Source: a virus | Length of the DNA: 64,000 bases | IMG/VR virus record: IMGVR_UViG_3300048815_000026 | Coordinates: 5,311 to 69,310 of that record | Reading direction: 5' to 3' (one strand) | Shown: one piece after another, positions 9,423 through 59,800 of the stretch | How positions within the stretch are numbered: the stretch's first letter is position 1 | How the letters are laid out: each line of letters begins with the position of its first letter | Notes under the pieces: model-generated | The model's database searches: none | Told to the model about the DNA's origin: nothing | Seen by the model: only the letters and a program-made list of their open reading frames with translations | Translations under genes and position numbers: made by a program

Positions 9423-9799
9423 GCCGCAAAAAGACCATCCTGCTGTACTGCGAAGACGAGCAAGAGCGCGCCGTGCTCTCCACGCTGTTCTGGGTCCGCT
9501 ACTACAAGGTGATCGGCGGACTCTCGGCCGAGCCGCCCATCCCTGACCTGGCGGTGGTGGTCGATACCCGCTCCCACTCCACCGGCAAGATGGCCAAAGC
9601 TATCAAGGAATTTCTGCCGTCCATCCCCATGCTGGTCATCCTCGACGACAACCGCAACGCCCTGCCCGATGGCTATCCGCTGGACGTCGAACTGCTGCCC
9701 GCGAGAACTCTGCCCATCATGCTGCTGGAGCGCCTGCGCGTGCTCCTCAAGCGCAAGCATCACCCCCTGAAAGGCCTCCCCCGCGAGGTGGCCGCGTGA
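9419..9799 (+). CDS. degenerate stand-alone response-regulator receiver domain
   Basis: KKTILLYCEDEQ..DLAVVVD..IPMLVI..LLERLRVLLKRK. Confidence 0.6.
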   Translation: MSRKKTILLYCEDEQERAVLSTLFWVRYYKVIGGLSAEPPIPDLAVVVDTRSHSTGKMAKAIKEFLPSIPMLVILDDNRNALPDGYPLDVELLPARTLPIMLLERLRVLLKRKHHPLKGLPREVAA

Positions 9800-10914
9800 G
9801 CTTTAGGATCCTCCAGGGCGACGTGATCAAGCGGCTGCGCGATCTGCACGGCAGAAGCGTGGATTGCGTGGTCACGTCGCCCCCTTATTGGGGCTTGCGC
9901 GATTACGGCGTCCCGGGCCAGCTCGGCCTGGAGCCCACACCGGCGGAATACATCGCCAAGATGGTGGACGTGTTTCGCGAAGTGCGGCGGGTACTCCGCA
10001 AAGACGGCACCTGCTGGGTCAACATGGGGGACAGCTACGTTTCCACCGGCGGCGTCCGCGCCCATGGCTGGCAGCCGGAGACCAACGGCCGCGGCGAACC
10101 AAACACGTACCCCAAGCGGGACGGCGAGACGATTATGCCGATGGCGCGCAACCGCCAGCGCAAAGATGCCGACCCCAAGCGGCGCCATTCTGCGCAGACA
10201 TCCATCTACCGCGGCGCCTGCGCCTCCGGTTCGCTTAAAGCGAAAGACCTTTGCGGCATCCCCTGGCGCCTGGCGTTCGCTCTCCAGAATGACGGTTGGT
10301 GGTTGCGCCAAGACATCATCTGGCACAAGCCGAACCCGATTCCGGAGAGCATCACGGATCGTTGTACGAAGGCGCACGAATACATCTTCCTGTTGAGCAA
10401 GAGCGCCACTTACTACTTCGACGCCGACGCCATCAAAGAGCCAGCTTCCCTTAACACGCACGATCGCGGTTCCAACCCCGTAAATCCGAAAGCGAAATGG
10501 AAGACACCCGACGGCTGGGATACCAGCAAGGGTGAGGGCGGCCATGGTGCTTTTCATCGCAAAGGCCGCGAGGCCGGTAAAGTCAAACAGAACGAGAGTT
10601 TCTCGGCCGCGCTAGTCGGCAAACCCGATAACCGCAACAAGCGCTCCGTCTGGACCGTCGGCACCCAGGCCTTCCCTGAAGCACACTTCGCCACCTTCCC
10701 CGAGAAACTGATAGAGCCTTGCATCCTTGCCGGCTGCCCCGCCGGCGGAACAGTCCTCGATCCCTTCAGCGGATCGGGAACCACCGGCGTGGTCGCCCTG
10801 CGCTATCACCGCAACTACATCGGCATCGAGCTCTCGGCAGAGTATGCAGCCATGAGCGAGCGCCGCATCACGTCCGACTCACCCCTCTTCAATCAAGGAG
10901 AAATCACCGCATGA
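9796..10914 (+). CDS. N4-C/N6-A DNA methyltransferase (beta class)
   Basis: TSPPY; HFATFP; DPFSGSGTT. Confidence 0.95.
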   Translation: MSFRILQGDVIKRLRDLHGRSVDCVVTSPPYWGLRDYGVPGQLGLEPTPAEYIAKMVDVFREVRRVLRKDGTCWVNMGDSYVSTGGVRAHGWQPETNGRGEPNTYPKRDGETIMPMARNRQRKDADPKRRHSAQTSIYRGACASGSLKAKDLCGIPWRLAFALQNDGWWLRQDIIWHKPNPIPESITDRCTKAHEYIFLLSKSATYYFDADAIKEPASLNTHDRGSNPVNPKAKWKTPDGWDTSKGEGGHGAFHRKGREAGKVKQNESFSAALVGKPDNRNKRSVWTVGTQAFPEAHFATFPEKLIEPCILAGCPAGGTVLDPFSGSGTTGVVALRYHRNYIGIELSAEYAAMSERRITSDSPLFNQGEITA

Positions 10915-11884: not shown

Positions 11885-12063
11885 AGATCCAAACCGTCAC
11901 CATCGGACGCCTGTGTTCCAACAAGGGGTGCAAGCGTGTTGCCCGGCAGGCTCGCTGGTTCAACAACTTCTGGATCTCCTACTGCGACGACTGCTGGGGA
12001 AAAGTCATCACGCTCGACATGGATAAGATCCCCACACCGCAGAAGGGAGCCGCAACCCTATGA
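11881..12063 (+). CDS. small Zn-finger protein
   Basis: CSNKGC...CDDC; ATGA overlaps. Confidence 0.6.
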   Translation: MKIQTVTIGRLCSNKGCKRVARQARWFNNFWISYCDDCWGKVITLDMDKIPTPQKGAATL

Positions 12064-12596
12064 ACGCACATCCGACCCTCTTTCCCAAAGAAGCGAAGTC
12101 ACGGTTCCTAACCATCACCGGCGATCGCTACCGCAACATGGTAGCGCGCCTGGCGAAAAAGCACATGGCGGTGCCCTTCAACGGCCGCGACCTCCGCGAG
12201 CATGTCCTCGATCACATGGGCGACCGCTACGACGGCGCCCTCAAGTGCCCTTACTGCCGGCGCGTCTGCGATATCTCCGAGGTGGAATTCGACCACGCTA
12301 CCCCGCTCAGCCGCGGCGGCTCCCCAGGCCTCGACAATATCGAGTACCCCTGCGCCGCCTGCAATGCGCAGAAAGGCGAAATGCTGCCCTGGGAATTCGT
12401 CAAGCTCTTGGATTTCCTCGAGCATGCCCTGCCCCTGGCGCGCACCAGCATCCTCAAGCGACTGCAGGAACACTCCAAGCTGCTGGCCACCAAGCGGCGC
12501 AGCGAAATGTTGATTCGTAACCACGGCGTACCGCCGGCCAAGCGACCGGCCCCCGGCAAACCACCCATGATCTCAGCCATCGAGGAGGCATTTTGA
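12060..12596 (+). CDS. HNH endonuclease
   Basis: CPYC..FDHATPLSRGG..NI..CAACNAQK. Confidence 0.9.
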   Translation: MNAHPTLFPKEAKSRFLTITGDRYRNMVARLAKKHMAVPFNGRDLREHVLDHMGDRYDGALKCPYCRRVCDISEVEFDHATPLSRGGSPGLDNIEYPCAACNAQKGEMLPWEFVKLLDFLEHALPLARTSILKRLQEHSKLLATKRRSEMLIRNHGVPPAKRPAPGKPPMISAIEEAF

Positions 12597-20876: not shown

Positions 20877-21163
20877 CCTACCATCCACGGCTAACCAAAT
20901 GCCCCGTCTGCGGAACAATGAAAAGTCCGCTGGCAACACTCTGCCACGGGTGCTATCGCATAGCGAGAAAAGCCGGTTGCAAAAACACCGGCGATATCCT
21001 GGCATTTGTCCGTTGGTTAGGAAGTTGGGAAAATACACTCGAGAGGAATCCATTCCTCAGTGCCGCCGAGGCCCCATCCCCATCCCCATCCGCCGCCGCC
21101 GGCCCAGCTGAATCGGTGCCTCTTCCTGGTCAATGCGGTCCTCCATCTGCTGCCAGCGAATAG
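20873..21163 (+). CDS. small Zn-finger protein overlapping terL 3' end
   Basis: CPVC..CHGC; GTGA overlap. Confidence 0.5.
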   Translation: MTYHPRLTKCPVCGTMKSPLATLCHGCYRIARKAGCKNTGDILAFVRWLGSWENTLERNPFLSAAEAPSPSPSAAAGPAESVPLPGQCGPPSAASE

Positions 21164-22622
21164 CCGCCGACCCCAGGTCCAGCCCGCGCACCGCATCCTG
21201 CAGCCGCATCTCCCGCGGCTTGGTCGCAAACTGCACAAACGTGTACAGCGCATAGCGCGTCTCGTCCGACACGTCGTCCAGCGGATCCCCGGCCACCTTC
21301 TTGATGTCTCCAGGCTTCACATCGTCGTGCATCCGGGTGCGCAGCGCCTCAAACGTCCGCGGGCACACATCGGTAATCTCAAACTCCCCCGAGCGCAGCA
21401 TCCGGTACAACAGCTGCCAGCCGCCCAGCCGGTCATTCGAAGCCCGCTCAAAGTGGATATCCCACGGCTCGAATATCTCGTTCACCTGGTCCGCAATCGT
21501 GTGCCCGTCGCCAATTTCCTTGAAGTTCGATGGATCCAGAAACCCGGCAATGATCCGCCGCCGCTCCCCACCCTCGGCCGGCTTCACAAAAGCCTCGATC
21601 GCCATCTGCGCCAACTCGTACGCCGGCACATGCGGCACCACCAACTCCCCAATCTTGCGGATCCGTCCTTCTGGAAAATACACCGCGTTGGTGTCCGGCA
21701 GCATTTCCCGGCGCACCCCGGGAATATGTAACTCCGGCGGCGCCGCTTCCCCCGGCCCGCGCACGTACAGCCCCACCGACGACGACGACTTGCCGTACCC
21801 AAAGTCCATCGATAGGAAATGGTTGTGCCACCACTCCACCCCGGCCTCGGCCAGCGGCTTGATCATCCCCCGGTGGAGAAAGGGAAAATACGCGCCCTCG
21901 AGCGTACACCAGCAGCCCTTCTCCATCGCGGCTGCGGCGCCCCCAGACATCATGTGCAGACGCTTGGAGTAATTCGCATCCAGCAAATTGTGGTCGGAAA
22001 GTTTGCCTGGAATGAAGGCCACGGAGAAGGGAATCGCCTCCCCATCGGAAGGCCAGAAGCGGTTCCAGTAGAGCTTGCCCGGCTGGGCGCACTCCTTCGG
22101 CGTATGCACCGGGCAGAACCCATGCAGGAACAGCGTCATGTGCCACGCCGCCCCGATGTTGCCCGGGTTCGACGTCAGCCGCATGCGCAGCCGCAGCGTC
22201 GAATCAGTCGAGCTCAAACGCCCCAGAATGTTGCGTACCTGCTTCTCCGAGTGCAGCGTAGACTCGTCAAAGCCGATGAACGAATAGCGCGGACCCAGGT
22301 ACTTCCACACGTCATCATCCGTCTTCATGTACGCAAACTGGATGGTGGCGCCGGAGGGAAACGTCCAGGTCCACTTCGGCGAGCCCACAAACACCCCGCC
22401 GAAGGGGGAATACAGCCGCTTGGTCTTATCGATGATGTCCGTCATCTCGACGAACGATGACCGGAAAACGATCCCCCGCAGGTTAGGGTTGTCGTACTCC
22501 TGCACCGCGTCCATGAGCATGGTCTCGGTCTTGAGCGACCCCGCGGACCCTCCAAACAGAAGAATATCGGCGCGGGAATCGAGCGCGTCCTTCTGGGCAG
22601 GTGTAGCCGGCTTCCAATCCAT
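21057..22622 (-). CDS. terL: terminase large subunit
   Basis: GGSAGSLKT Walker A, IGFDE Walker B, TSNPG motif III, MDFG...DDVSDETRY nuclease. Confidence 0.95.
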   Translation of the reverse strand: MDWKPATPAQKDALDSRADILLFGGSAGSLKTETMLMDAVQEYDNPNLRGIVFRSSFVEMTDIIDKTKRLYSPFGGVFVGSPKWTWTFPSGATIQFAYMKTDDDVWKYLGPRYSFIGFDESTLHSEKQVRNILGRLSSTDSTLRLRMRLTSNPGNIGAAWHMTLFLHGFCPVHTPKECAQPGKLYWNRFWPSDGEAIPFSVAFIPGKLSDHNLLDANYSKRLHMMSGGAAAAMEKGCWCTLEGAYFPFLHRGMIKPLAEAGVEWWHNHFLSMDFGYGKSSSSVGLYVRGPGEAAPPELHIPGVRREMLPDTNAVYFPEGRIRKIGELVVPHVPAYELAQMAIEAFVKPAEGGERRRIIAGFLDPSNFKEIGDGHTIADQVNEIFEPWDIHFERASNDRLGGWQLLYRMLRSGEFEITDVCPRTFEALRTRMHDDVKPGDIKKVAGDPLDDVSDETRYALYTFVQFATKPREMRLQDAVRGLDLGSAAIRWQQMEDRIDQEEAPIQLGRRRRMGMGMGPRRH

Positions 22623-22630
22623 TCAGCGAT

Positions 22631-23089
22631 TCACTGCACCGGGTCATCCCGCCAGGCCGAGCGGTAGAACGACGGCTTAGCCTTATCCGCCGGCGTCTCC
22701 TTGTACCCATCAATGCCCGGGTCCAGCACCTGCTCCGGCATCCATCCCAGGATCTTCGCCAGCACTTCAATCGCCCGGATCTGGCCCGCCACCGTGGGCT
22801 GGCCCCCATCCGCCTGGATGATCTTTACCAACGCCTCGACCGCGTCCGGCTTATCGAACTTGATCTTCTTGAGCGCGGCCGCGGACTCCTTCTTGAGCGC
22901 AGCATCGATCTCCGCCCGCAGCTTTTCCTGGTACTCCTTGAATTGCGGCTTCGCTATGTGCCGGCACAGCGTTCGCGGATCCATGCCCAGCTTGAGCGCC
23001 ACCGAGCGCCCCGAGGCCTTGCTATCCTCCACCAGCATGCGCGCCGCCACCATCTCCTGTGCGCTTAATGTCACCTTTTTTTTGTTCAC
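22631..23089 (-). CDS. terS: terminase small subunit
   Basis: HTH N-terminus, RAIEVLAKILG, directly upstream of terL; GTG 23089 preferred as start. Confidence 0.75.
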   Translation of the reverse strand: MNKKKVTLSAQEMVAARMLVEDSKASGRSVALKLGMDPRTLCRHIAKPQFKEYQEKLRAEIDAALKKESAAALKKIKFDKPDAVEALVKIIQADGGQPTVAGQIRAIEVLAKILGWMPEQVLDPGIDGYKETPADKAKPSFYRSAWRDDPVQ

Positions 23090-23110
23090 GCCCTGAAAGA
23101 CCTTTCCCTC

Positions 23111-23145
23111 AAATAGAAACGGCAGACCGAAGCCTGCCGTTTCTA
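23111..23145 (-). terminator. hairpin/terminator closing the pentamer array
   Basis: TAGAAACGGCAGGC-TTCG-GTCTGCCGTTTCTA-TTT. Confidence 0.8.
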
Positions 23146-23295
23146 CCATGCCAAACCAAACCAAGCCAAGCCACGCCGAGCCCTAACAGACCGTGCCCAG
23201 CCGAACCATGCCACGTGCCCTGCCAAGCCTTCACCTGGCCGCACCTGACCATAACTCGCCGGACCGTGCCACGGCATACCTCACCGGACCACACC
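23143..23295 (-). repeat. GGY-NN pentamer array (candidate non-contiguous guide RNA)
   Basis: 30 five-nt units, 27 starting GGT/GGC, variable dinucleotides; blocks of 13, 3 and 14 units. Confidence 0.9.
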
Positions 23296-23297
23296 TC

Positions 23298-23345
23298 TTA
23301 AAACTGCTGCACCTCGAAGTGGGTCTGCTGCAGCCGTAGCATCAT
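23298..23345 (-). pseudogene. 15-aa mini-ORF, possible remnant of array effector gene
   Basis: MMLRLQQTHFEVQQF; ATGA-coupled to upstream gene; stop 2 nt before array. Confidence 0.4.
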
Positions 23346-26300
23346 CTCTTCGCGACCGCTTCCTCCTCCAGTTCCTTGAGCTCGCTCTGCTTCACGGTGA
23401 TGTTCCGCCCGTCGTCAGTCTTGATGCGCGCAATCCGCTGCTCCGGATCCTGCCACGCAATCCGGCCTCGGGTGCCGTCCCGCAACCGCACCGCTACCCC
23501 ATTTTTGGAAGATTGAATGGTGCCTGGGCTTACTTCTGCCGGCCGGAGGGTTGCTCCAGCCGCTTCACTTCCCCGCTCAGCCGGTCCAGCTGCTCCTCCG
23601 AGAGTTTTGGATAAAGCCGCCCTGGCTTGCTCATAGGCTGCGGATTTGACTCCGTTTGCGTCTTTGCCGGCTGCAAGGTCGGCCGCGCCCCGGTTGAGGA
23701 TGTCATCGAGCGGTCCCGCTCGCGTACTGAGTCGGTCATAGAGCTCCTGTGCCTGCGCCGCACCCGCGGCGATCTTTGCATTCTCGGTTGTGTTGATTGT
23801 ATTGCCCGCCTGCGCCAGCGGAGCCACTTTATTTTCTTTAGAAACCCCCGCAAACAGGCGCCGCTCCTGCGAGATCCGCCGGCGGATGTACTGCGAAACC
23901 TCCGCCTTCTCCAGCATCAGGTTGCGCTTCATCTCCTGCGTGCCGAAAAGGCTCACCTGCGTGTCTGTGTGCTCGCCGGCGCCACGCGCCATGCGCGCCA
24001 TTTCGTCGACCACGTCGTCGGGAACCCGGCCGCCTTTGGCCTCCCGCGCCTCGATCGTTTTTAGAATCGCTTCCTGCTCGGCTGGGTTCTCGGTCGCCCT
24101 GCCAATCGCCACCGCACGGCTCTCCGGTATCTTGCCGGCGACCACGTCGTCAAAGATAGGACCGCTCAGCTTCGAGAGCGCCATCCCTTCCGACGCCAGC
24201 TTTTCCTTCAACGTAATCCCGCGCTTGGCCAGCGTTTCCGGCGTCGCCTCGGTGTCACGGAAGAATTTCGCCGCATCCACTGCGGTCCCTTTGCCCTGGG
24301 CAATATTCTGCATCGCCCCCACCACGCGCGCTTCGCCGGCGTCCTTCGCGCTCAGGATCGGCTTAGTGTCGATGTCCTCCACCCCGTTAGCTTTGGCCAG
24401 GTCGATGCGATGGTGACCGTTCACTACATACGTCTTTCCGTCCGCCGGATCCTGCCAGGTGGCGATCGCGTCCGCCAGGTCTTCGTTCCACTTCCGACCC
24501 TTGAGCGCATCGGTAACGCCGGCTTTGTCTGTCTTCAGCTTGAACTGGAAACGCTTCGGGTCGACCGCGATGTCAGACACACGCATGCGCTTGACTGTCG
24601 TGGCCGCGCCTGAATCTTTTGGGGGTGCGGAATTTTTAACAGGCGTTGTCGCGGCTGCGGGCGCAGCCGGCTTTTCTAGTACGGTACTTCGAAGTCCGCC
24701 GGCAGGTTGTTCATTCCGTCCACTGTTGCCTGGCCGATCCGATCCGCTACCTGAGCGTGCGTTAACTTCTCCGGTGGCATCTGTGGCTTTGGCTGCGGCA
24801 TAGATGTCGCTGGGGATCGGCTTTTCTCGATTGATCTGCTCGAGTCGCTCATTCATTGCCTCCGTGGTTCGCTCAGGCGTCCACTGCTGCTGAACCTTGC
24901 TGATGAACTCCGGGGTCCTGTCTTGATTATATAGTAGTTTTGCGCTGCCCCGTTCACCAGAGTTATCGATCGTTTGCACCTCCAGCTGGTCCCCAAAGTG
25001 CTGCATTAAGTGCTCTAAAACGTTGGGGATCTCACTATAGGCGTGCGCCATGTAGCTCAGCTGCACGGTGCGCCCGATGCGCCGCGCCCGGTCGATCATG
25101 CGCCCCACCGTCTTTGCCGGATCGTCCACGTAAGACCATAGAATGGTCGGCCGCCGCCCCGAATCGATGATTTGCTGCACCTTCTTCACCGCATCGGCCT
25201 GGTTGTCGAGAATGCTCTCCATGTCCAGGCCCACATGCCCCTCTCCCGGCGTGGTCAACCCCGTCGTCTTACCCGACCCTGGAGAGGCCGTCATAATACG
25301 CACGTCGGCTTTGCCCGGAGCCGGCGGCTTCTTCAACACCGTACGCAGCGAAGCATCCGCCACCTGGCTGGCCGCTGAGGCGACCAAGCGATCCTGGTTG
25401 GTCCGATCCTTCACATACTCAGGAAACTGCTCCTTGGCCGCGTCCGTGGCAATGTTAGGCACCCCATTCTTGGTGTTGGCCTTCAGGTAGTCCGCCACCA
25501 TCTGCGGGCCGTTCTCCTGCACACGCTGCTGGAACGCAGCCTCTTGGGCGGTTCCCGTATTGGAACGTTTGGCCTTGATCGGTGCAACATCCTCGGCCGT
25601 GTATCCCGGTGCAACCTCCACCCGCGCAGGCGCAGCTGGACTAGTTTCCGCGGGCTGAGCCGCTTCTGTCGCCGGCCTGCGCACTGGCTGCACGACCGGC
25701 CTCGGGCCGACTGGTTCCACAGCTGTGCCCGGATTCAGTTGCGGATAAGGCGCCCGCACTGCTGCGGGTCCAGGCCTCACTGGCACCAGAGGCGCATTAG
25801 CCCCTGCCCCGACAGCCCCCGCATTCCCCGTGGTGCCTACCTGCGTCCGCGCCGTCCTCGGCGTCACCGGCTGCACGTACTGCCCTGACAACCGCGTCGG
25901 CGAGGGCTCCGGCAAATTCGAAAAGAAATGCTGCAGCCCCTCTTGGATCGGCGTCATCGGCGTCGAGCCAAGGACTTTGTTGGCCACCAGTTTGGCTGCG
26001 CCCTTCATGAAGCCGCCGTCGACGCCCTTCAGCGCCTGCGCCGCCGTCTCCCGTGCGCTTAGCGGCTGTTCCGCGATCGCCTGCTGCTTGGCCATCCGCG
26101 GCGCCGCGTTCTGCAAGGCCTCCTGCGCCTTCAGCACGCTCGATTCCTGCCGCTTCAGCCACTGGAAATTCTGCCCCGTCGCCTGCTCCAGCTTCTGGTA
26201 GTACAAATCCCTGGTCGCTCCCAGCGCGTCCTCGAGGCCTTTAGTCACCGCGCCGGCGCGCCCAGCCGCCACAGTGTTCTTGGGAAACTGGTTGGCCAGC

Positions 26301-27451
26301 TCGCGGTTCAGCCACTGCCGCAAGTCGTTCAATCCCCCCAGCGTCTTCACTGTCCCCAGGCGCCGTTGCAGTTCCTTGATCTCCGCCGCATCCTCCGGCG
26401 CAAACTCCTCCAACGTCTCTGGGAACTTCACCGCGCTCTGCAACGGCGTGGGATCGACCGGCAAATCCTTCACCGGAGCCAACGTCTGCGCATGCGCCAC
26501 GTCGGTCTGCTCCTGCATCTTCTCGAGCACTGCCTGTGTCCGCGCTACCGCATCTTCCGGCGTCGCTGCCGTCGCCGGATTCAGTTCGGGATTGTCTGCC
26601 ACCACCTGGCGCAGACCACTCCCAATGTCCGTGGCAATTTCCTTGGGAAAGAAGCTGGTATCCCGAATAGTCCCGCGCGCCAAAACGCCCGCTAAAGACG
26701 CGTGCTGCGTAGCCGTATAGTTCTGCCCTACGATCTTCGGCTGCGGCTTAGCCCATGCCACCGCCGGCTCGACCACCTTGCCCAGCAGATAGCCGCCCAG
26801 CATTTGCCCGGCAGTGTTGGCCGGGTTGGCGGCCATCGCTACACCCTGCTCGCCGGCCTCCTGGCGCACGTCAGCGACCGCCTCAGCGTTCTGCGCGTCG
26901 ATCGTGGGGTTTCCCGTCACTGCCATCGCAGGGACGCCCAAGGCCGACCCTGAAGCCCCTCCAGCCATCAGTCCCTTGCCGGCTGCCTGCAGCGCCTCCC
27001 ACGGGTGCAGGACGGGGTTAACCAAGCCCTGCGCCGTACCTTGCCCAAACCGCTCCACCTGCCCACGCCAACCCGTGTCCGGAGTCGTGCCCGGCGCGGC
27101 CAGCTCCTCCGTGATCCGGTCGCGCCAGTTCTGCGGCGGAGTGGCCGCGGCAGGCTGCGAAGGGAGTCCGTCGGGGGCCTGGGCCGGCAGCACCGGAGCC
27201 GGCTGCAATCCGCCCGAGCCAAAATCAATCTGCCCCGACCGGTTCATCCCCGTACCCGGCACCGGAGGCGGATGCAGTTGGTCTCCGCCATACGCCGCGA
27301 ACGGGTTGACCGCCCCTGCCGCCGCCGGCGCAGGCAGGTCTGAAGTGCCCGTCACCGCCGTGTTATCGGGAGTCAGTACCCCGCCGCCATAACCCGCGAG
27401 TGGATCTTGATCCTGGGTCGTCTGGTCTGTCTGGTCTACCGTGGTGGTCAT
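23342..27451 (-). CDS. large ejection/polyvalent protein with zeta-toxin-like P-loop and ParB-like domains
   Basis: MTASPGSGKTT..MESIL; IAVDPKRFQFK..YVVNGHHR; located after other ejection genes. Confidence 0.75.
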   Translation of the reverse strand: MTTTVDQTDQTTQDQDPLAGYGGGVLTPDNTAVTGTSDLPAPAAAGAVNPFAAYGGDQLHPPPVPGTGMNRSGQIDFGSGGLQPAPVLPAQAPDGLPSQPAAATPPQNWRDRITEELAAPGTTPDTGWRGQVERFGQGTAQGLVNPVLHPWEALQAAGKGLMAGGASGSALGVPAMAVTGNPTIDAQNAEAVADVRQEAGEQGVAMAANPANTAGQMLGGYLLGKVVEPAVAWAKPQPKIVGQNYTATQHASLAGVLARGTIRDTSFFPKEIATDIGSGLRQVVADNPELNPATAATPEDAVARTQAVLEKMQEQTDVAHAQTLAPVKDLPVDPTPLQSAVKFPETLEEFAPEDAAEIKELQRRLGTVKTLGGLNDLRQWLNRELANQFPKNTVAAGRAGAVTKGLEDALGATRDLYYQKLEQATGQNFQWLKRQESSVLKAQEALQNAAPRMAKQQAIAEQPLSARETAAQALKGVDGGFMKGAAKLVANKVLGSTPMTPIQEGLQHFFSNLPEPSPTRLSGQYVQPVTPRTARTQVGTTGNAGAVGAGANAPLVPVRPGPAAVRAPYPQLNPGTAVEPVGPRPVVQPVRRPATEAAQPAETSPAAPARVEVAPGYTAEDVAPIKAKRSNTGTAQEAAFQQRVQENGPQMVADYLKANTKNGVPNIATDAAKEQFPEYVKDRTNQDRLVASAASQVADASLRTVLKKPPAPGKADVRIMTASPGSGKTTGLTTPGEGHVGLDMESILDNQADAVKKVQQIIDSGRRPTILWSYVDDPAKTVGRMIDRARRIGRTVQLSYMAHAYSEIPNVLEHLMQHFGDQLEVQTIDNSGERGSAKLLYNQDRTPEFISKVQQQWTPERTTEAMNERLEQINREKPIPSDIYAAAKATDATGEVNARSGSGSDRPGNSGRNEQPAGGLRSTVLEKPAAPAAATTPVKNSAPPKDSGAATTVKRMRVSDIAVDPKRFQFKLKTDKAGVTDALKGRKWNEDLADAIATWQDPADGKTYVVNGHHRIDLAKANGVEDIDTKPILSAKDAGEARVVGAMQNIAQGKGTAVDAAKFFRDTEATPETLAKRGITLKEKLASEGMALSKLSGPIFDDVVAGKIPESRAVAIGRATENPAEQEAILKTIEAREAKGGRVPDDVVDEMARMARGAGEHTDTQVSLFGTQEMKRNLMLEKAEVSQYIRRRISQERRLFAGVSKENKVAPLAQAGNTINTTENAKIAAGAAQAQELYDRLSTRAGPLDDILNRGAADLAAGKDANGVKSAAYEQARAALSKTLGGAAGPAERGSEAAGATLRPAEVSPGTIQSSKNGVAVRLRDGTRGRIAWQDPEQRIARIKTDDGRNITVKQSELKELEEEAVAKR

Positions 27452-27452
27452 C

Positions 27453-29288
27453 CTAGAAAACCTTCGCCCCCGGGTTGTCCTTCAAAAACCGTTCCTTCTG
27501 CTTTGGGTCGATGTGCCCATACCGCCCATCCTTCAGCTGCACCCCAACCTGCCCCGCCGGAATCTTGATGTTCTCCGGCCACCCATTCGGCTGATGTCTG
27601 CCGCCGCCTGTGGTATGCACCTGGTGCCCACCCTGCACCCCGGGAATGCCCTCCGCCAGCCGCCGCGTGGTCGCGTGAATCTGGTTGGTCTGCCGCAGAA
27701 AGTAATCCAGGTCCGGCGTCGAAGCATTCGGCAGCATATCCAACAGCCGGTTGACCTGAGATTCGGTCGCCCCCGGCAGCCCGCCCGCCTTGCGCATCGC
27801 CTGCAAATTCTCCCGCGCCGAAACCAGGCCGATTACATAGTTCCTCTGCTCCGGCGAAAGATTCGATTTCGCCAACTGCCCCTGAACCCACTGCGTTGCC
27901 GTCCCCTCCGGCTGCGCCAGCGCCGCGGCCACCAGCGTGTTGTCGATCCGCTGACCCTTGGCGGACATAGCCCTGGCCGCCTGCTCCAGAGTGTCGAGCG
28001 ATCCGCTCACATCGTTGAACTGCGCCACCTGCGCCTGGTTCTTTGAGGCCTGCGATTGGAACGCCGTGCCCACCCCCGTCGTGTTCCCCTGGTCATCGGT
28101 CAACTCCGTCCGCCCAGGCAAACCATGGCCCTGCAGATCCGTGCCCTTGGCCGCCAGCAAATAGCGCCCATAGTAGGCCTGCGCCCGCTCGCCCTCGACC
28201 GCAATCTGCTGCTGCCGCTGGTTCCATGCCGGCGTCCCCGGAGTGATCTTCTCCTGCTCGATCTCGGTCTTCCATTTGGCGATCTTGGCCATCGAATCGC
28301 GGTACTGGTTCAGCGCCACCCGTGACTGCGTGACCACCGAATCGGGATCCTCGACAATCGATTTCTCTCCCGTGGCCGGGTCCGTAACCACCTTCATCCC
28401 CTTGGAAGGGGCCTCGTCAATATCCTTCTGCTGGATGCCCTGAATCCGCAGATGCCCCGTCGTCGCCGCCCTGGTGATGCCGCCCAGGTCCGCCGGCCGG
28501 TACGTCGCGCCCACGATCAAATCGGGATTCTGCGCATGCATCTCCGGGGTGACAATCTCCGGCTCCATACCCTGCGCCTTGGCCGCATCCAGCGCGGTCT
28601 TCTGCTGCGTCTCCGCCAGGTTCGCCGAGGCCGCCTGCTGCGCCTGCTCGTTGCCGATCAGTTGTTGCTCCCGGCCCACCAACAGTTGATGGTGCCCCTC
28701 GGTCCCACCCACCAACGGCTCAATCCCCGGGAGTATCGCGGCCAGCGTGTCGTCGCCAATCCGCGCCAGCACCCGCTTTACCGGGCTCTTGATCTGCGAA
28801 ATCCCGCTCCCTGTCGAGGTCAGCCGCGCCAGCTCTGCCTGCTCCCGGTCCAACGTGGACGGCCCCTGCACTGGCTGCACTCCGCCCTGAGGAATCGCCG
28901 GCATCACCGGCGTTGTCCCACCCGGCCGCGCAAAACCGCCCGGATCCGGATTCGCCGGATCGGCCGCCGGAGCCAGCTGCGAAGCCGCGTACGCCGCTGG
29001 GCCACCTGATGCGTTGTAGTCAGCCGTCCTTTGCTGAAACGCCCCCGCCAGGCCAGCCCGCTTCGGCTCTGCCTGCGATGGCGGCGTCTTGATAGATCCG
29101 CTCTGCGGCGTCGTCTGCCCGGCCGAGGTCTGCGGCGCCGTGTTGGGCGGCGGCATCACCAAAGCCTGCGCCGGCGCAGGGCTGGCAAACCCGGCAATCT
29201 GCCGGTCTACATCATCGGCGTCGTCGTCCTGGCCCGGCCAATACGACGGGTTCGTCAGCATCTGCGTTCCGCCCATTAGTTCGTCCAC
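27453..29288 (-). CDS. putative DNA ejection / internal virion protein
   Basis: Q/A/G-rich helical 611 aa protein in podovirus ejection slot. Confidence 0.65.
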   Translation of the reverse strand: MDELMGGTQMLTNPSYWPGQDDDADDVDRQIAGFASPAPAQALVMPPPNTAPQTSAGQTTPQSGSIKTPPSQAEPKRAGLAGAFQQRTADYNASGGPAAYAASQLAPAADPANPDPGGFARPGGTTPVMPAIPQGGVQPVQGPSTLDREQAELARLTSTGSGISQIKSPVKRVLARIGDDTLAAILPGIEPLVGGTEGHHQLLVGREQQLIGNEQAQQAASANLAETQQKTALDAAKAQGMEPEIVTPEMHAQNPDLIVGATYRPADLGGITRAATTGHLRIQGIQQKDIDEAPSKGMKVVTDPATGEKSIVEDPDSVVTQSRVALNQYRDSMAKIAKWKTEIEQEKITPGTPAWNQRQQQIAVEGERAQAYYGRYLLAAKGTDLQGHGLPGRTELTDDQGNTTGVGTAFQSQASKNQAQVAQFNDVSGSLDTLEQAARAMSAKGQRIDNTLVAAALAQPEGTATQWVQGQLAKSNLSPEQRNYVIGLVSARENLQAMRKAGGLPGATESQVNRLLDMLPNASTPDLDYFLRQTNQIHATTRRLAEGIPGVQGGHQVHTTGGGRHQPNGWPENIKIPAGQVGVQLKDGRYGHIDPKQKERFLKDNPGAKVF

Positions 29289-50021: not shown

Positions 50022-51143
50022 TTACCGAGTGACGTTCATCTGCCAATTGACATAGTCGACGTACATGAGGTTGCTCGAAGCGGTGCCCCCGGTCGCGCTC
50101 CAGGACATCAGCATCGCTGAGCTGGTGATGCTCGCAAGCGCCGTCTTGCACGCAGTCGCCTCCGTCCCGTTGATGTACCAGTGAACATAGGTGCCATCGT
50201 TGTGCAGAGACAGGCGGACGAAGGTCGCGGCAGTGGCTCCGATCGTCGAGTCAGTCAAGGTGCCGGCATTGTTGCAATACCAGTCGTTCGGCGTGCCGTT
50301 GGCCGAGGAAAGATCGAAGCTGACGGTAGCCACCCATGGGCTGGCTGCCTCCTGCAAAACCAATCCCGCCTGATACTGGCCCGCAGTCGTGCCGGGGAGC
50401 ACCACCACGTCAACATCCGTCTCATAGGTCCAGAGCGGCGTCGCGCCGTTGCCAATGATGGACCTCTGCAGGGTGTTGCTGATCGAACAAGCCTCGCCCG
50501 TGTTTGAACTCGCTGTCCCGGAGGCCACCGATAAGAGCCCCGGGTGATTCGCATTCGTGTTTGGGGTCAAAATTGAACATCCAGCGGCCGTGGGAGAGCC
50601 GATAGCATTGCCGCTGATGTCTGCAGTGGAGTAAAAGTCGTTCCAGTAGGTGCTGTAGGGTCCGGCCGAAATCGACTGCGAGTAAAACGCCGGCGCCGTC
50701 TGCGCCGCGGTGAACGCCGTGGTATTTGCCGGGATGCTCGCGACCACATTCGCCGTCGTCGCCACCTGCGTCGTATTGGTCCCTGCGCTCGCGGTCGGCG
50801 CCGTGGGCGTCCCGGTCAGCGCCGGCGAAGCCAGAGGCGCCGCCCCTGTCACCTCCCCCACCGAATAATCTCCCGAGTTCGCCACCACATCGCCGGTGCG
50901 CGTAAACACTGAAGTTACCGGAGCCGACGCGCTGCACGACGCCGGTGCCCATGCCGTGCCGTTATAAACCAGGCAGTAGTTCGTGGTGGGCAGGGTGGCC
51001 GACACGGGCACACTCTGCAGTGCCGTCGCGTTGCCCGTAGATACCCCCGGCACACCCCCAGGCCCCGTCTGCTGGCCAAACGCCATCGCGCCGCTCAGCA
51101 CCGCCATCAGAACGCAAATTACTGCGTACATCCGTACCCCCAT
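50022..51143 (-). CDS. signal-peptide fibre/lectin-like protein
   Basis: AFGQ signal; VTSVFTRTGDVVA and APLASPALTGTPTAPT fibre repeats. Confidence 0.7.
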   Translation of the reverse strand: MGVRMYAVICVLMAVLSGAMAFGQQTGPGGVPGVSTGNATALQSVPVSATLPTTNYCLVYNGTAWAPASCSASAPVTSVFTRTGDVVANSGDYSVGEVTGAAPLASPALTGTPTAPTASAGTNTTQVATTANVVASIPANTTAFTAAQTAPAFYSQSISAGPYSTYWNDFYSTADISGNAIGSPTAAGCSILTPNTNANHPGLLSVASGTASSNTGEACSISNTLQRSIIGNGATPLWTYETDVDVVVLPGTTAGQYQAGLVLQEAASPWVATVSFDLSSANGTPNDWYCNNAGTLTDSTIGATAATFVRLSLHNDGTYVHWYINGTEATACKTALASITSSAMLMSWSATGGTASSNLMYVDYVNWQMNVTR

Positions 51144-56843: not shown

Positions 56844-59800
56844 TCAAAACTTCACCGTCCCCGAGAACGACACCGGCCCGCTGATCGTGATCTGGTACAC
56901 CCCCGAGGGCACCGCCACCACCGTCAGCGGCAGATTGGGGCTGGTGAAGGTACCCGCATGCGCCGTCAAATTCGTGGTCCCCGCCGCCACCCCCGTGACC
57001 AGGCCCGTCGTCGCGTTCACCGTCGCGTGCCCCGTGCTCGAGCTGGCATACGTCCCCGCCACGTTGCCATGGCTGTCTGTCGTCGTGCAGTTGGTGGTCG
57101 AGCTATCCGAGTAACTGCAGGTGGCAATCAGCTGGTTGGTGGACCCCACAAACAGCCCCGTCACCCCGCCCGTGGTCGCAAGCGAAACCCCGGTTAAGGT
57201 CACCGTCGGCGCGCTCACCGTAAGGTCCCACTGGTTCAGCCCCACCGTCCCCACGTAGGCCTTGATGTACGGCGTTCCCGCCGCAACCGCGCTCGCCAGC
57301 CCTGGATTCGCCGATCCCACCGCGCCAATCGTCACCGACCCTGTATTCGAACTCGTCCAGCTGGTGACCGCGTTGCCGTAAATATCGGCCACACTGCAAT
57401 TCGTAGTGGTCGAATTCGAGTAGTTGCAGTAGGCCGAGAACTGCAGCGTCCCCCCCACCACCATGGTGTTGGCGCTCCCCGGAGTCCCCAGGTACCCACC
57501 GGTCAGCGTGGGCGGTGCCGCCGTCACCGTGATGGTCAGCGCAGGACTCGAGGTGATCCCCGCCACCACCGCCGTCAAATTCGTCGAACCCGCGGCCACT
57601 CCGCTCACCAGGCCGCTGCTGCTCACCGTGGCAATCGTCGTTGCGGTACTCGTCCAGGCCGTGACCTTATTGCCGTGCGAGTCCGTCGTCGCGCAGCTGG
57701 TGGTTGAGCTATCCGAATAGTGGCAGGTAGCGACCAACTGGTTAGTACCGCCCACGACCAGAGTTGTGATCCCACCCGTGGTGGCGAGAGAGACCGAACT
57801 CAGCGTCACGCTGGCCGCGGTAACACTGAGCGTGAAGGGGGGGCTGGTCACACCGGCAACGGTGGCCGTCAGGTTGGCCGAGCCGACCGCAACGCCCCCC
57901 GCCAGACCCGACGAGTTGAGGCTCACGATACCGGCGTTGCTGGTGTTCCAGTTGGAGACAGAATTGCCATACGCATCGGGCGTATTGCAGCCCGTCGTCG
58001 TGCCATTCGCGTAGTGGCAGGCGGCATTTATCTGCACGCTGGTGCCCACCTGGATTGAGGTTACAGGGCCCGCTGCCGTCAGGCTTACGCTGTTGAGCGT
58101 CGGCGGGCTGCCGGCTGTGTAGGTCGCCGAGACCACCGCGCTTGGCCCGTAGCCGTACCCGGAAGCGTACGAGGAGGGCTGATTCTGCGCCCCCCACATG
58201 CCCACTGCTTTTACCGTGGTGGTGGTGGAGACGGCGATCGTCCCTCCGCTCGCGATGTACCTCGCGGTCCCCGAGCCAGGCACAGGAGTCGATCCATCCG
58301 TCGTGTACCAGATGCCGGTGTTCGTGTCTCGGTTGGTGCCTGAGTTGGTGAAGGTCACCGTCTGCGAGGTCGTGAAGCTTCCGCTCGCCGGTGAGATCGT
58401 TGGGGCGATGCTGGTCTGCGTCGAACCATTGAAAAAATCACACTGGTTGCCGCTGCCGCTGGGGGTGTTGGCTGGGCCATCCTCCACGCCCCACCAGCCA
58501 AAGGCCCCCGCATAGCCGGGGTAGCAGTCGGCCGGAGTGTTGTTCCCGCCCGCCCCAAAGGAGCTCTGGATGTGATTGTTGCTGTCGGAGAAGGCCCCGT
58601 CCTGGGCGAGCATCATAGAGTTGGACCACTCGCCCTGCACCAGGTTGTAGTTGGCAGTTGTGCCTGTCGAGCCCCACTGCTCAATCCCATCTCCGTAATA
58701 GCAGTTGGCTGAACAGGGCGTGGCCAGTGCCGTATTGGCCATGAGAACGTTGTAATCAGTGTTTGTTACACAACCAGAGGAGGAGGGATTATTGTTACTG
58801 CATCCATTCGCGACGGAAAGTCCAAAAGTGCCCGCTTCCGGGAAAAAGGGGTCATGGATGGAGTTGTATCGAACCTGCATGTTGGTGGTGCTTCCGGGGT
58901 AAAGGTTCGCTTGCGTTTCAAAGCTGATGCGGTGGATGTTCGACCAGTCGTTATACTCGATGACACAGTTGAGACACTTGCCCTGGCTTTCGAAAACCTT
59001 TAGCCCCTCCTCTTGGTAGTAAGTGTCATTGTTCTCGAAAGTGAAGCCGTTCATCCCGGTGTGGACCCCGGTCCCATTGCAGAAGCCGCCATTGCCGCCA
59101 AAGCCGGGATAGGTGATATTGCTCATGATGTTCGAGCAGTCGCCGGTCGCGCCCAGCCGGTTCCAGGTCACCACGATATTCGAGTCTGGAGTTGCGCTTG
59201 AATTGCCGTCGAAATAGATCAGCCCATCGTAGGTGTTGGTGCTGGCCGTGCCCCCCTGGTTCCCGTGCGCGTAGTCATATTTGACGGTGTAGTTGCTGAC
59301 GTTCGAACCCACATAGAGACACTGCCCTCCGTCTGGGGACGGATGGTTCATGTTGCATTCCAGGTTCTCAAAGCTTGCCGCCGCGGAGCAGTTAGGCCCG
59401 TAACTAAACTCCGGGCTGCTGTTCGCCCCCGACCAGTTGACAGTTGCGGATGGCGTGTAGACAACCGGCCCCGAAGTGGAAGGCGTCAACGCCGGACCCG
59501 CAACCGATACGCCGCAGGGGATGCTCAGCGTTGCGTTAACCGAAAATGTTCCCGCTGGAAACTCAGCCGTGCCTCCCGCGGAGCAGCTGTTGATCGCCGC
59601 CTGGATCTGCGAGGTGGTCATGCCGGTCGTGATCGGTGTCCCACATGCCGGGGTGATGGTGTATGTGCCCGCCACCAGCGTGCTCATGGGACCGGCGCCC
59701 GTGGGACTGGTATTCGCAGGCCCAAACGCTACAATGTTTGACCCGGCAACCGCATAGAGGGTCGTGGAGCTGGCAATGGACACCGGCCCCGTGTAGAGCG

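Follow-up and report, generated by a model that had tools for sequence, protein, structure and literature searches.

We describe a tandem array of GGYNN pentamers that is probably a solo (orphan) VIPR guide-RNA array, carried by a peat phage whose complete genome has no recognizable Vipr. Judged by sequence, the best match of its first guide among all sequences searched is the carrier's own allele of a 611-amino-acid (611-aa) gene.

VIPR pairs guide RNAs, termed vrRNAs, with a minimal RAMP protein named Vipr, which has an RRM core, a G-loop and a thumb; in most cases there is also an accessory gene, vap (bioRxiv 10.64898/2026.04.26.720920). The same preprint defines a vrRNA by at least four YNNGG repeats, typically 9 to 16, followed by a structured tail. 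Its NN pairs read double-stranded DNA while skipping one base, mostly the codon wobble, and the outcome is transcriptional silencing of rival mobile elements (bioRxiv 10.64898/2026.04.26.720920). One Vipr protomer is assigned to each repeat in the companion structure paper (bioRxiv 10.64898/2026.04.26.720927). Solo vrRNAs have been described on satellites and on 346 VIPR-null phages (Lopez et al. preprint, bioRxiv 10.64898/2026.10.15.759431). That preprint predicts that they act on vipr genes, other vrRNAs, satellites or host REP decoys, and it reports that the guides match self less well than non-self (bioRxiv 10.64898/2026.10.15.759431). An earlier note, made from the letters of the DNA alone, had likened the array to such systems. 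Its account of them was sound: GGY/NN vrRNAs, the one-base skip and the RAMP protein Vipr are all described in the first preprint (bioRxiv 10.64898/2026.04.26.720920).

The array lies in a single virus record of 69,310 bases (G000). Our window, meaning the whole 64,000-base stretch of DNA that was analyzed, corresponds to bases 5311-69310 of this record. The record has exact direct terminal repeats of 127 bases (its bases 1-127 and 69184-69310), consistent with a circularly closed assembly, and CheckV gives a completeness of 100%. Sequencing runs that contain the phage are labelled peat metagenomes. On the minus strand, the gene order is the 611-aa gene, the 1369-aa gene, the array, a helix-turn-helix (HTH) gene at the terS position and TerL (Table 1). 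The array thus sits at the end of the virion-gene block, between the 1369-aa gene and terS/terL. Most proteins of the phage match no Pfam or PHROG family, and the identity of its TerL with that of the closest cultured phages is below 30%. The 611-aa protein could be placed in neither a Pfam nor a PHROG family; among named ESM Atlas clusters, the one closest to it is "phage DNA ejection protein" (score 0.91), a lead only. In the early region, PHROG matches at 12060-12596 and 9796-10914, both on the plus strand, point to an HNH endonuclease and a DNA methyltransferase. Modification of the phage DNA might be relevant to self-protection.

Table 1. Features of the array and its surroundings, in window coordinates
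Feature	Position	Strand	Remarks
611-aa gene, viral hypothetical protein; carries the guide 1 match	27453..29288	-	13 homologues
Guide 1 self-match, codons 242-254 (EPEIVTPEMHAQN) of the 611-aa gene	28528..28565	-	One-base-skip read
1369-aa polyvalent protein gene, directly upstream of array	23342..27451	-	Weak Zeta-toxin-like P-loop match; C-terminus matches phrog_21
Leader, from stop of 1369-aa gene to array	23296..23345	-	15-codon mini-ORF, tail-like stretch
GGYNN pentamer array, 30 units	23295-23143	-	Read from sequence
Block A = guide 1, 13 GGYNN units	23231..23295	-	11 GGY plus deviants GCCGT, GTTAT
Junction: extra A (23230), three units, extra GT (23214-23213)	23213..23230	-	
Block B = junction units GGCTT GGCAG GGCAC	23229-23215	-	
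Block C = guide 2, 14 units	23143..23212	-	13 GGY plus deviant GTTAG
3' hairpin with UUCG loop, candidate vrRNA tail	23114..23145	-	Fold prediction
HTH protein, terS-like, directly downstream of array	22631..23089	-	HTH_Tnp_1_2, E 1.7e-05, below Pfam cut-off; precedes TerL
Terminase large subunit (TerL)	21057..22622	-	phrog_979, E 3.6e-41

The pentamers listed in the earlier note are correct letter for letter. GGY starts 27 of the 30 units, the deviants being GCCGT, GTTAT and GTTAG. By phase, the array divides into three blocks of 13, 3 and 14 units, and at the junction the phase shifts by 1 base and then by 2 bases. The NN positions are variable, with 7 distinct pairs among the 13 units of block A and 8 among the 14 of block C, where TT occurs four times in succession. 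With a constant GGY and variable NN, the array agrees with the sequence definition of vrRNA repeats (at least four tandem YNNGG/GGYNN units), and its blocks of 13 and 14 units fall within about 9-16 units per guide. When both strands of the 64-kb window were scanned, this was the one cluster with at least 7 of 10 units beginning with GGY in phase. The array itself reaches 9/10 and 12/13; when the full 69,310-base genome was shuffled 100 times with dinucleotides preserved, the maximum was 7. On this sequence evidence, we regard it as a candidate member of the VIPR vrRNA class.

We then consider what the guides read. When the NN pairs of block A are compared with the genome using a one-base skip, 24 of 26 informative bases (92%) match at 28565-28528. 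The match comprises 11 consecutive perfect units, the next best run being 5, and in each of the two terminal units one of the two bases is matched. Both terminal mismatches change amino acids. The degenerate units of block A, GCCGT and GTTAT, keep matching NN pairs. In frame 0 of the gene, the first two positions of each codon are read and the wobble position is skipped. Skips of 0 and 2 gave a best score of 17; a skip of 3 returned the array itself (26) and then 17. A score of 24 was reached by none of 1,000 base-shuffled guides (maximum, 20) and by none of 1,000 unit-shuffled guides (maximum, 21). The site shares the strand of the array and precedes it by 5.2 kb. Since guide 1 has the sequence of the coding strand, it would pair with the template DNA strand and not with mRNA, and such pairing fits DNA targeting. 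For comparison, 275 arrays of 10-20 units from IMG/VR loci were each scored against the locus fetched with them, of median length 8.4 kb: none reached 0.9 and one reached 0.8.

Guide 2 behaves differently. The best genome match of block C is 19/28 at the start of terS, on the plus strand, at 23052, and this score of 19 was reached by 81 of 1,000 base-shuffled and 166 of 1,000 unit-shuffled guides. A natural target read with a one-base skip and aligned with the wobble position was found for block A and not for block C. The earlier note held that both long blocks decode to phage genes, with NN pairs reading DNA past a skipped third base; this is borne out for block A, whose match lies beyond all shuffles, and fails for block C, which has no target above chance. 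The associated proposal that block C is a guide against a diverged terS allele is likewise unsupported, its match being at shuffle level; a search of metagenome_contigs found no relative of terS. The pattern of the first 12 units of block C had no exact match in viral_contigs or genome_contigs. A genome search with the three units of block B gave no target, and reading the guides in reverse (parallel) orientation gave no match.

The two guides end in one hairpin, and block A has no tail of its own. The stem includes the final three letters of the last array unit. The structure had been described in the earlier note as a UUCG hairpin terminator; folding confirms a hairpin at 23145-23114, whereas a consensus scan for intrinsic terminators passed it over, since a proper T run is missing. 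Rfam returned a single spurious match at the array and hairpin, 28 bits against a gathering score of 218. We also compared it with vrRNA tails at three loci, L031, L065 and L045. In these tails, the last unit and an A-rich linker are base-paired to a GUUU stretch, enclosing an inner hairpin, and compensatory changes occur in the inner stem. The hairpin of the window is arranged likewise. When six tails of these loci were used to build a covariance model, the window hairpin scored 13 bits (E 0.28), third of 21 matches and not significant. The two better matches, at 50677-50730 and 57387-57439, fall within coding sequence, are not preceded by pentamers and are attributed to chance. A combined pattern of units and hairpin had 0 matches in viral_contigs. 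Plain-hairpin vrRNA ends, some with a UUCG loop, also occur beside Vipr genes, in L100, L045 and L108.

The leader between the 1369-aa gene and the array contains a mini-ORF that overlaps the stop of that gene. These 50 bases resemble the 3' half of the vrRNA tails of L031 and L065, and an exact 13-mer is common to the leader and an L065 tail; a shared stretch of at least 13 was reached by 3 of 300 leader shuffles. The leader may therefore, judging by this likeness, be the remnant of an upstream vrRNA tail, and the resemblance hints that the array derived from a multi-vrRNA locus of the L031/L065 kind. L065 parallels the window in two further ways: it has two guides in one tail-terminated array, and its second array opens with a short out-of-phase piece, like the junction described here. 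The unit composition differs, however. L031, L065 and L045 (L031 and L045 are Vipr-positive) use GGC units almost exclusively, whereas the window array mixes GGT and GGC.

A VIPR vrRNA is expected to be expressed as a discrete RNA of about 100 nt that is recovered together with Vipr. A peat metatranscriptome library (X2) contains contigs that agree fully with the phage sequence at 23005-23161 and 23265-23471; their strand and RNA ends are unreadable, and DNA carry-over is possible, so we do not count them as evidence of transcription. They match only the two ends of the array and leave its middle uncovered, and parts of the 1369-aa gene are identical as well. Across 22400-25600 of the window, eight pieces are identical in X2 contigs. 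One DNA run, X3, holds variants that are 88-95% alike, so related strains co-occur. Coverage in DNA runs X3 and X4 excludes the array.

A vrRNA requires an effector, and we searched the genome for one. The Vipr of SUSP1 is encoded by a 195-aa gene flanked by arrays in KT454805; it carries the residues named in the structure paper and belongs to phrog_4652. This family had 0 matches to the six frames of G000. A generic GGYNN pattern yielded 120 IMG/VR loci, and iterated searches were run on them with the SUSP1 Vipr as the seed. A Vipr homologue was found in 84 of the 120. Its distance to the array at these 84 loci has a median of 15.5 nt, is at most 500 nt in 75 and never exceeds 730 nt. When an HMM of the 84 homologues was run against 811 ORFs of the genome, the best E value was 0.7 (SUSP1 Vipr, 1.8e-51), and hhalign of the Vipr profile against 256 ORFs gave a best probability of 9.4% (SUSP1 seed, 100%); in both cases SUSP1 Vipr is the seed of the profile and so is not an independent control. 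Eight divergent Viprs searched singly in the genome gave a best E value of 0.066, phmmer with SUSP1 vap1 found nothing in the genome (best E, 0.44), and a G-loop motif search of all ORFs produced nothing convincing. The profile includes clades that have staggered "GGCAG" arrays and plain hairpin tails, so the miss does not come from a narrow profile. The complete genome appears to contain no Vipr detectable by sequence; a highly divergent Vipr is possible. The RAMP-fold gene that the earlier note had expected in linkage with the array was not found by these searches, either beside the array or anywhere in the complete genome. Since no Vipr was found in a complete genome, we class the array as solo (orphan): it is present in a carrier in which sequence searches detect neither vipr nor vap, as in the published solo vrRNAs.

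Arrays of this type are not rare in viral contigs, as 9 of the 36 Vipr-less IMG/VR loci have a diverse array together with at least 2.5 kb on both sides. These candidate solo vrRNAs are L019, L026, L027, L046, L066, L070, L082, L099 and L116, and several of the arrays end in terminator-like hairpins (L027, L046). Among the 36 Vipr-less loci, no alternative effector family occurred in more than 3, and the families seen were generic only (ATPases, portals, radical SAM). Some loci carry very long tracts. There are 130 in-phase GGYNN units beside a Vipr gene at L016:6301-7010 and 47-56 units in L055, L108 and L112. These tracts far exceed the 9-16 units given for single vrRNAs.

We looked for the array and its target in relatives of the phage. 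The earlier note had suggested searching related phages for (GGYNN)n arrays at this locus. In the five related loci examined, L001 and L002 (TerL 80% identical) and L124-L126 (611-aa homologues), the array was found in 0/5 and the target in 0/5. The distance from the homologue of a 274-aa gene to TerL is 6.9 kb here versus 2.9 kb in L001 and L002. At L001:9150-9240, and at the same place in L002, there are scattered GGCTT/GGTTT-like pentamers that form no regular array. They lie between the homologue of the 1369-aa C-terminus and terS, on the opposite strand to a possible small lysine-rich ORF.

Targets elsewhere were sought in several ways. The pattern of the inner 11 units of guide 1 had 0 exact matches in viral_contigs, metagenome_contigs and genome_contigs, in scans that require all specified bases, let near-matches escape and possibly exclude the window's own record. 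Among 10 aligned homologues of the 611-aa protein, P0010 allows at most 22/26 and the rest no more than 18, these scores being ceilings calculated from the residues. When the window guides were run over 126 fetched loci (1.19 Mb), their best scores were 19/26 and 19/28. Conversely, 319 IMG/VR guides were compared with the phage genome, and the best match was 15/18 by a 9-unit guide, which is at chance level.

Taken together, these data suggest that the array most likely is a guide that is loaded in trans and directed against close relatives. Transcription of the array would accompany that of the upstream genes or follow closely after it. The array would act only if Vipr came in trans, from a co-infecting phage, a prophage or the host, and any such activity is conjecture. 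The loaded filament would then settle on the 28565-28528 site of close relatives and block downstream transcription. This would affect what remains of the 611-aa gene together with the 1369-aa gene, the array, terS and terL. Unless the two terminal mismatches or something else protects it, the carrier's own site would be struck as well, and, with Vipr present, a self-match at 92% would be self-harming to the carrier.

The array could instead be a decaying relic that has no function here, which recombination brought in from a multi-vrRNA VIPR locus or which stayed on when vipr was lost; the self-match would then mean that it formerly belonged to a rival targeting this lineage. We consider this unlikely. 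It would account for the failure of sequence searches to find Vipr in the genome, for the tail-like fragment upstream of the array with no repeats before it, for the lack of the array in all five related loci and for the longer stretch between the 274-aa homologue and TerL (6.9 kb against 2.9 kb in L001/L002). The two phase shifts and three degenerate units could also reflect decay. However, GGY is intact in 27 of 30 units, 11 consecutive guide units are still perfect, and both deviant units of block A have kept their matching NN. Moreover, working vrRNAs are reported to contain degenerate units frequently (bioRxiv 10.64898/2026.04.26.720920). Another explanation takes the self-match at face value. 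An unrecognized effector of the phage or host would load the RNA, and guide 1 would repress the virion and packaging genes of the phage itself, serving as a timer or as a dormancy/immunity switch that also strikes superinfecting relatives. The position of the site is suggestive, given that guide 1 best fits a gene of its own phage that lies on the strand of the array and 5.2 kb upstream of it; blocking transcription at this site would shut off the array too, a feedback layout. That none of the 275 comparison arrays reaches 0.9 against the locus fetched with it sets this array apart in the same direction, and VIPR is described as able to repress or induce phages through their regulators (bioRxiv 10.64898/2026.04.26.720920). 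Against this, three sequence methods found no Vipr-like protein, no alternative effector family recurs in more than 3 of the 36 Vipr-less loci, and no lysogeny genes are seen in the annotated parts of an incompletely annotated genome. We regard self-regulation as improbable.

There is hardly any room for the view that the array is no guide RNA and arose as a repeat within a coding sequence or as a simple repeat by chance. Two ORFs do span it, one of 80 aa on the plus strand and one of 61 aa on the minus strand, but the period is five bases, GGY is kept in all three codon phases and two insertions break the frame, a pattern that coding constraint cannot produce. Chance does no better: the 100 shuffles never exceeded 7 in-phase GGY, and a wobble-aligned match of 24/26 is not expected of a simple repeat. 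The solo guide array, loaded in trans, stays the preferred reading.

VIPR was first described in 2026, and the solo guides in print, as far as the available text of the preprints goes, come from enterobacterial SUSP1-like phages and satellites. With the present array, the range of solo vrRNAs would widen to an unrelated, high-GC phage from the environment. The array also offers a statistically solid example of a guide, guide 1, whose only known match is the carrier's own gene. The case bears on self/non-self discrimination by VIPR, that is, on the number and place of tolerated mismatches, as well as on the origin of guides and on their use in kin exclusion or self-regulation. Guide 1 and the 28565-28528 site form a ready substrate for examining mismatch tolerance. 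A bolder proposal, which we offer tentatively and think doubtful, is that a VIPR guide has been turned on a virion gene of its own lineage, for RNA-guided kin exclusion or self-regulation. If true, a solo vrRNA loaded on a Vipr that the host or a co-resident element provides would be a repressor with its operator inside the phage's own virion/packaging block. Superinfecting relatives would be silenced, the carrier's own late genes would possibly be restrained, and the two terminal mismatches of the carrier allele would tune or prevent self-silencing. Such a kin or self class of targets is absent from the descriptions of solo vrRNAs in the available part of the preprint, whose supplementary target tables may hold such cases (bioRxiv 10.64898/2026.10.15.759431).

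How does the array compare with known systems? It resembles complete VIPR systems in the GGY scaffold with NN as guide, in guides of 13 and 14 units, in the structured 3' end, in the one-base-skip code and in a target inside coding sequence. Unlike them, it has no vipr or vap by sequence searches, its neighbours being the 1369-aa polyvalent protein gene and terS. It also matches its own genome at 92% (24/26), whereas the published VIPR sets, in the part of the preprint available, contain no self-target at an NN match of at least 80% (bioRxiv 10.64898/2026.04.26.720920).

A different guide system provides a parallel. Some archaeal viruses lack cas genes but carry mini-CRISPR arrays, and the spacers of these arrays match close relatives. 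Like them, the window array is an effector-less viral guide cassette aimed at genes of relatives, which implies a borrowed effector. The differences are that mini-CRISPR uses another repeat system and a contiguous pairing code. To our knowledge, mini-CRISPR spacers of viruses do not match the carrier itself.

The closest counterparts are the solo vrRNAs of VIPR-null SUSP1-family phages and F5 satellites (bioRxiv 10.64898/2026.10.15.759431). Unlike those, the array has its best target in the carrier's own 611-aa gene (24/26), its carrier is the unrelated high-GC peat phage, and its two guides share one plain hairpin, whereas each published solo vrRNA has a pseudoknot tail. Pattern and covariance searches identified no VIPR-positive partner with a matching tail. 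The likeness lies in the design: both have a GGYNN array with a 3' tail in a carrier without vipr or vap, both are read with a one-base skip in wobble alignment, and for both Vipr is presumed to come from another element.
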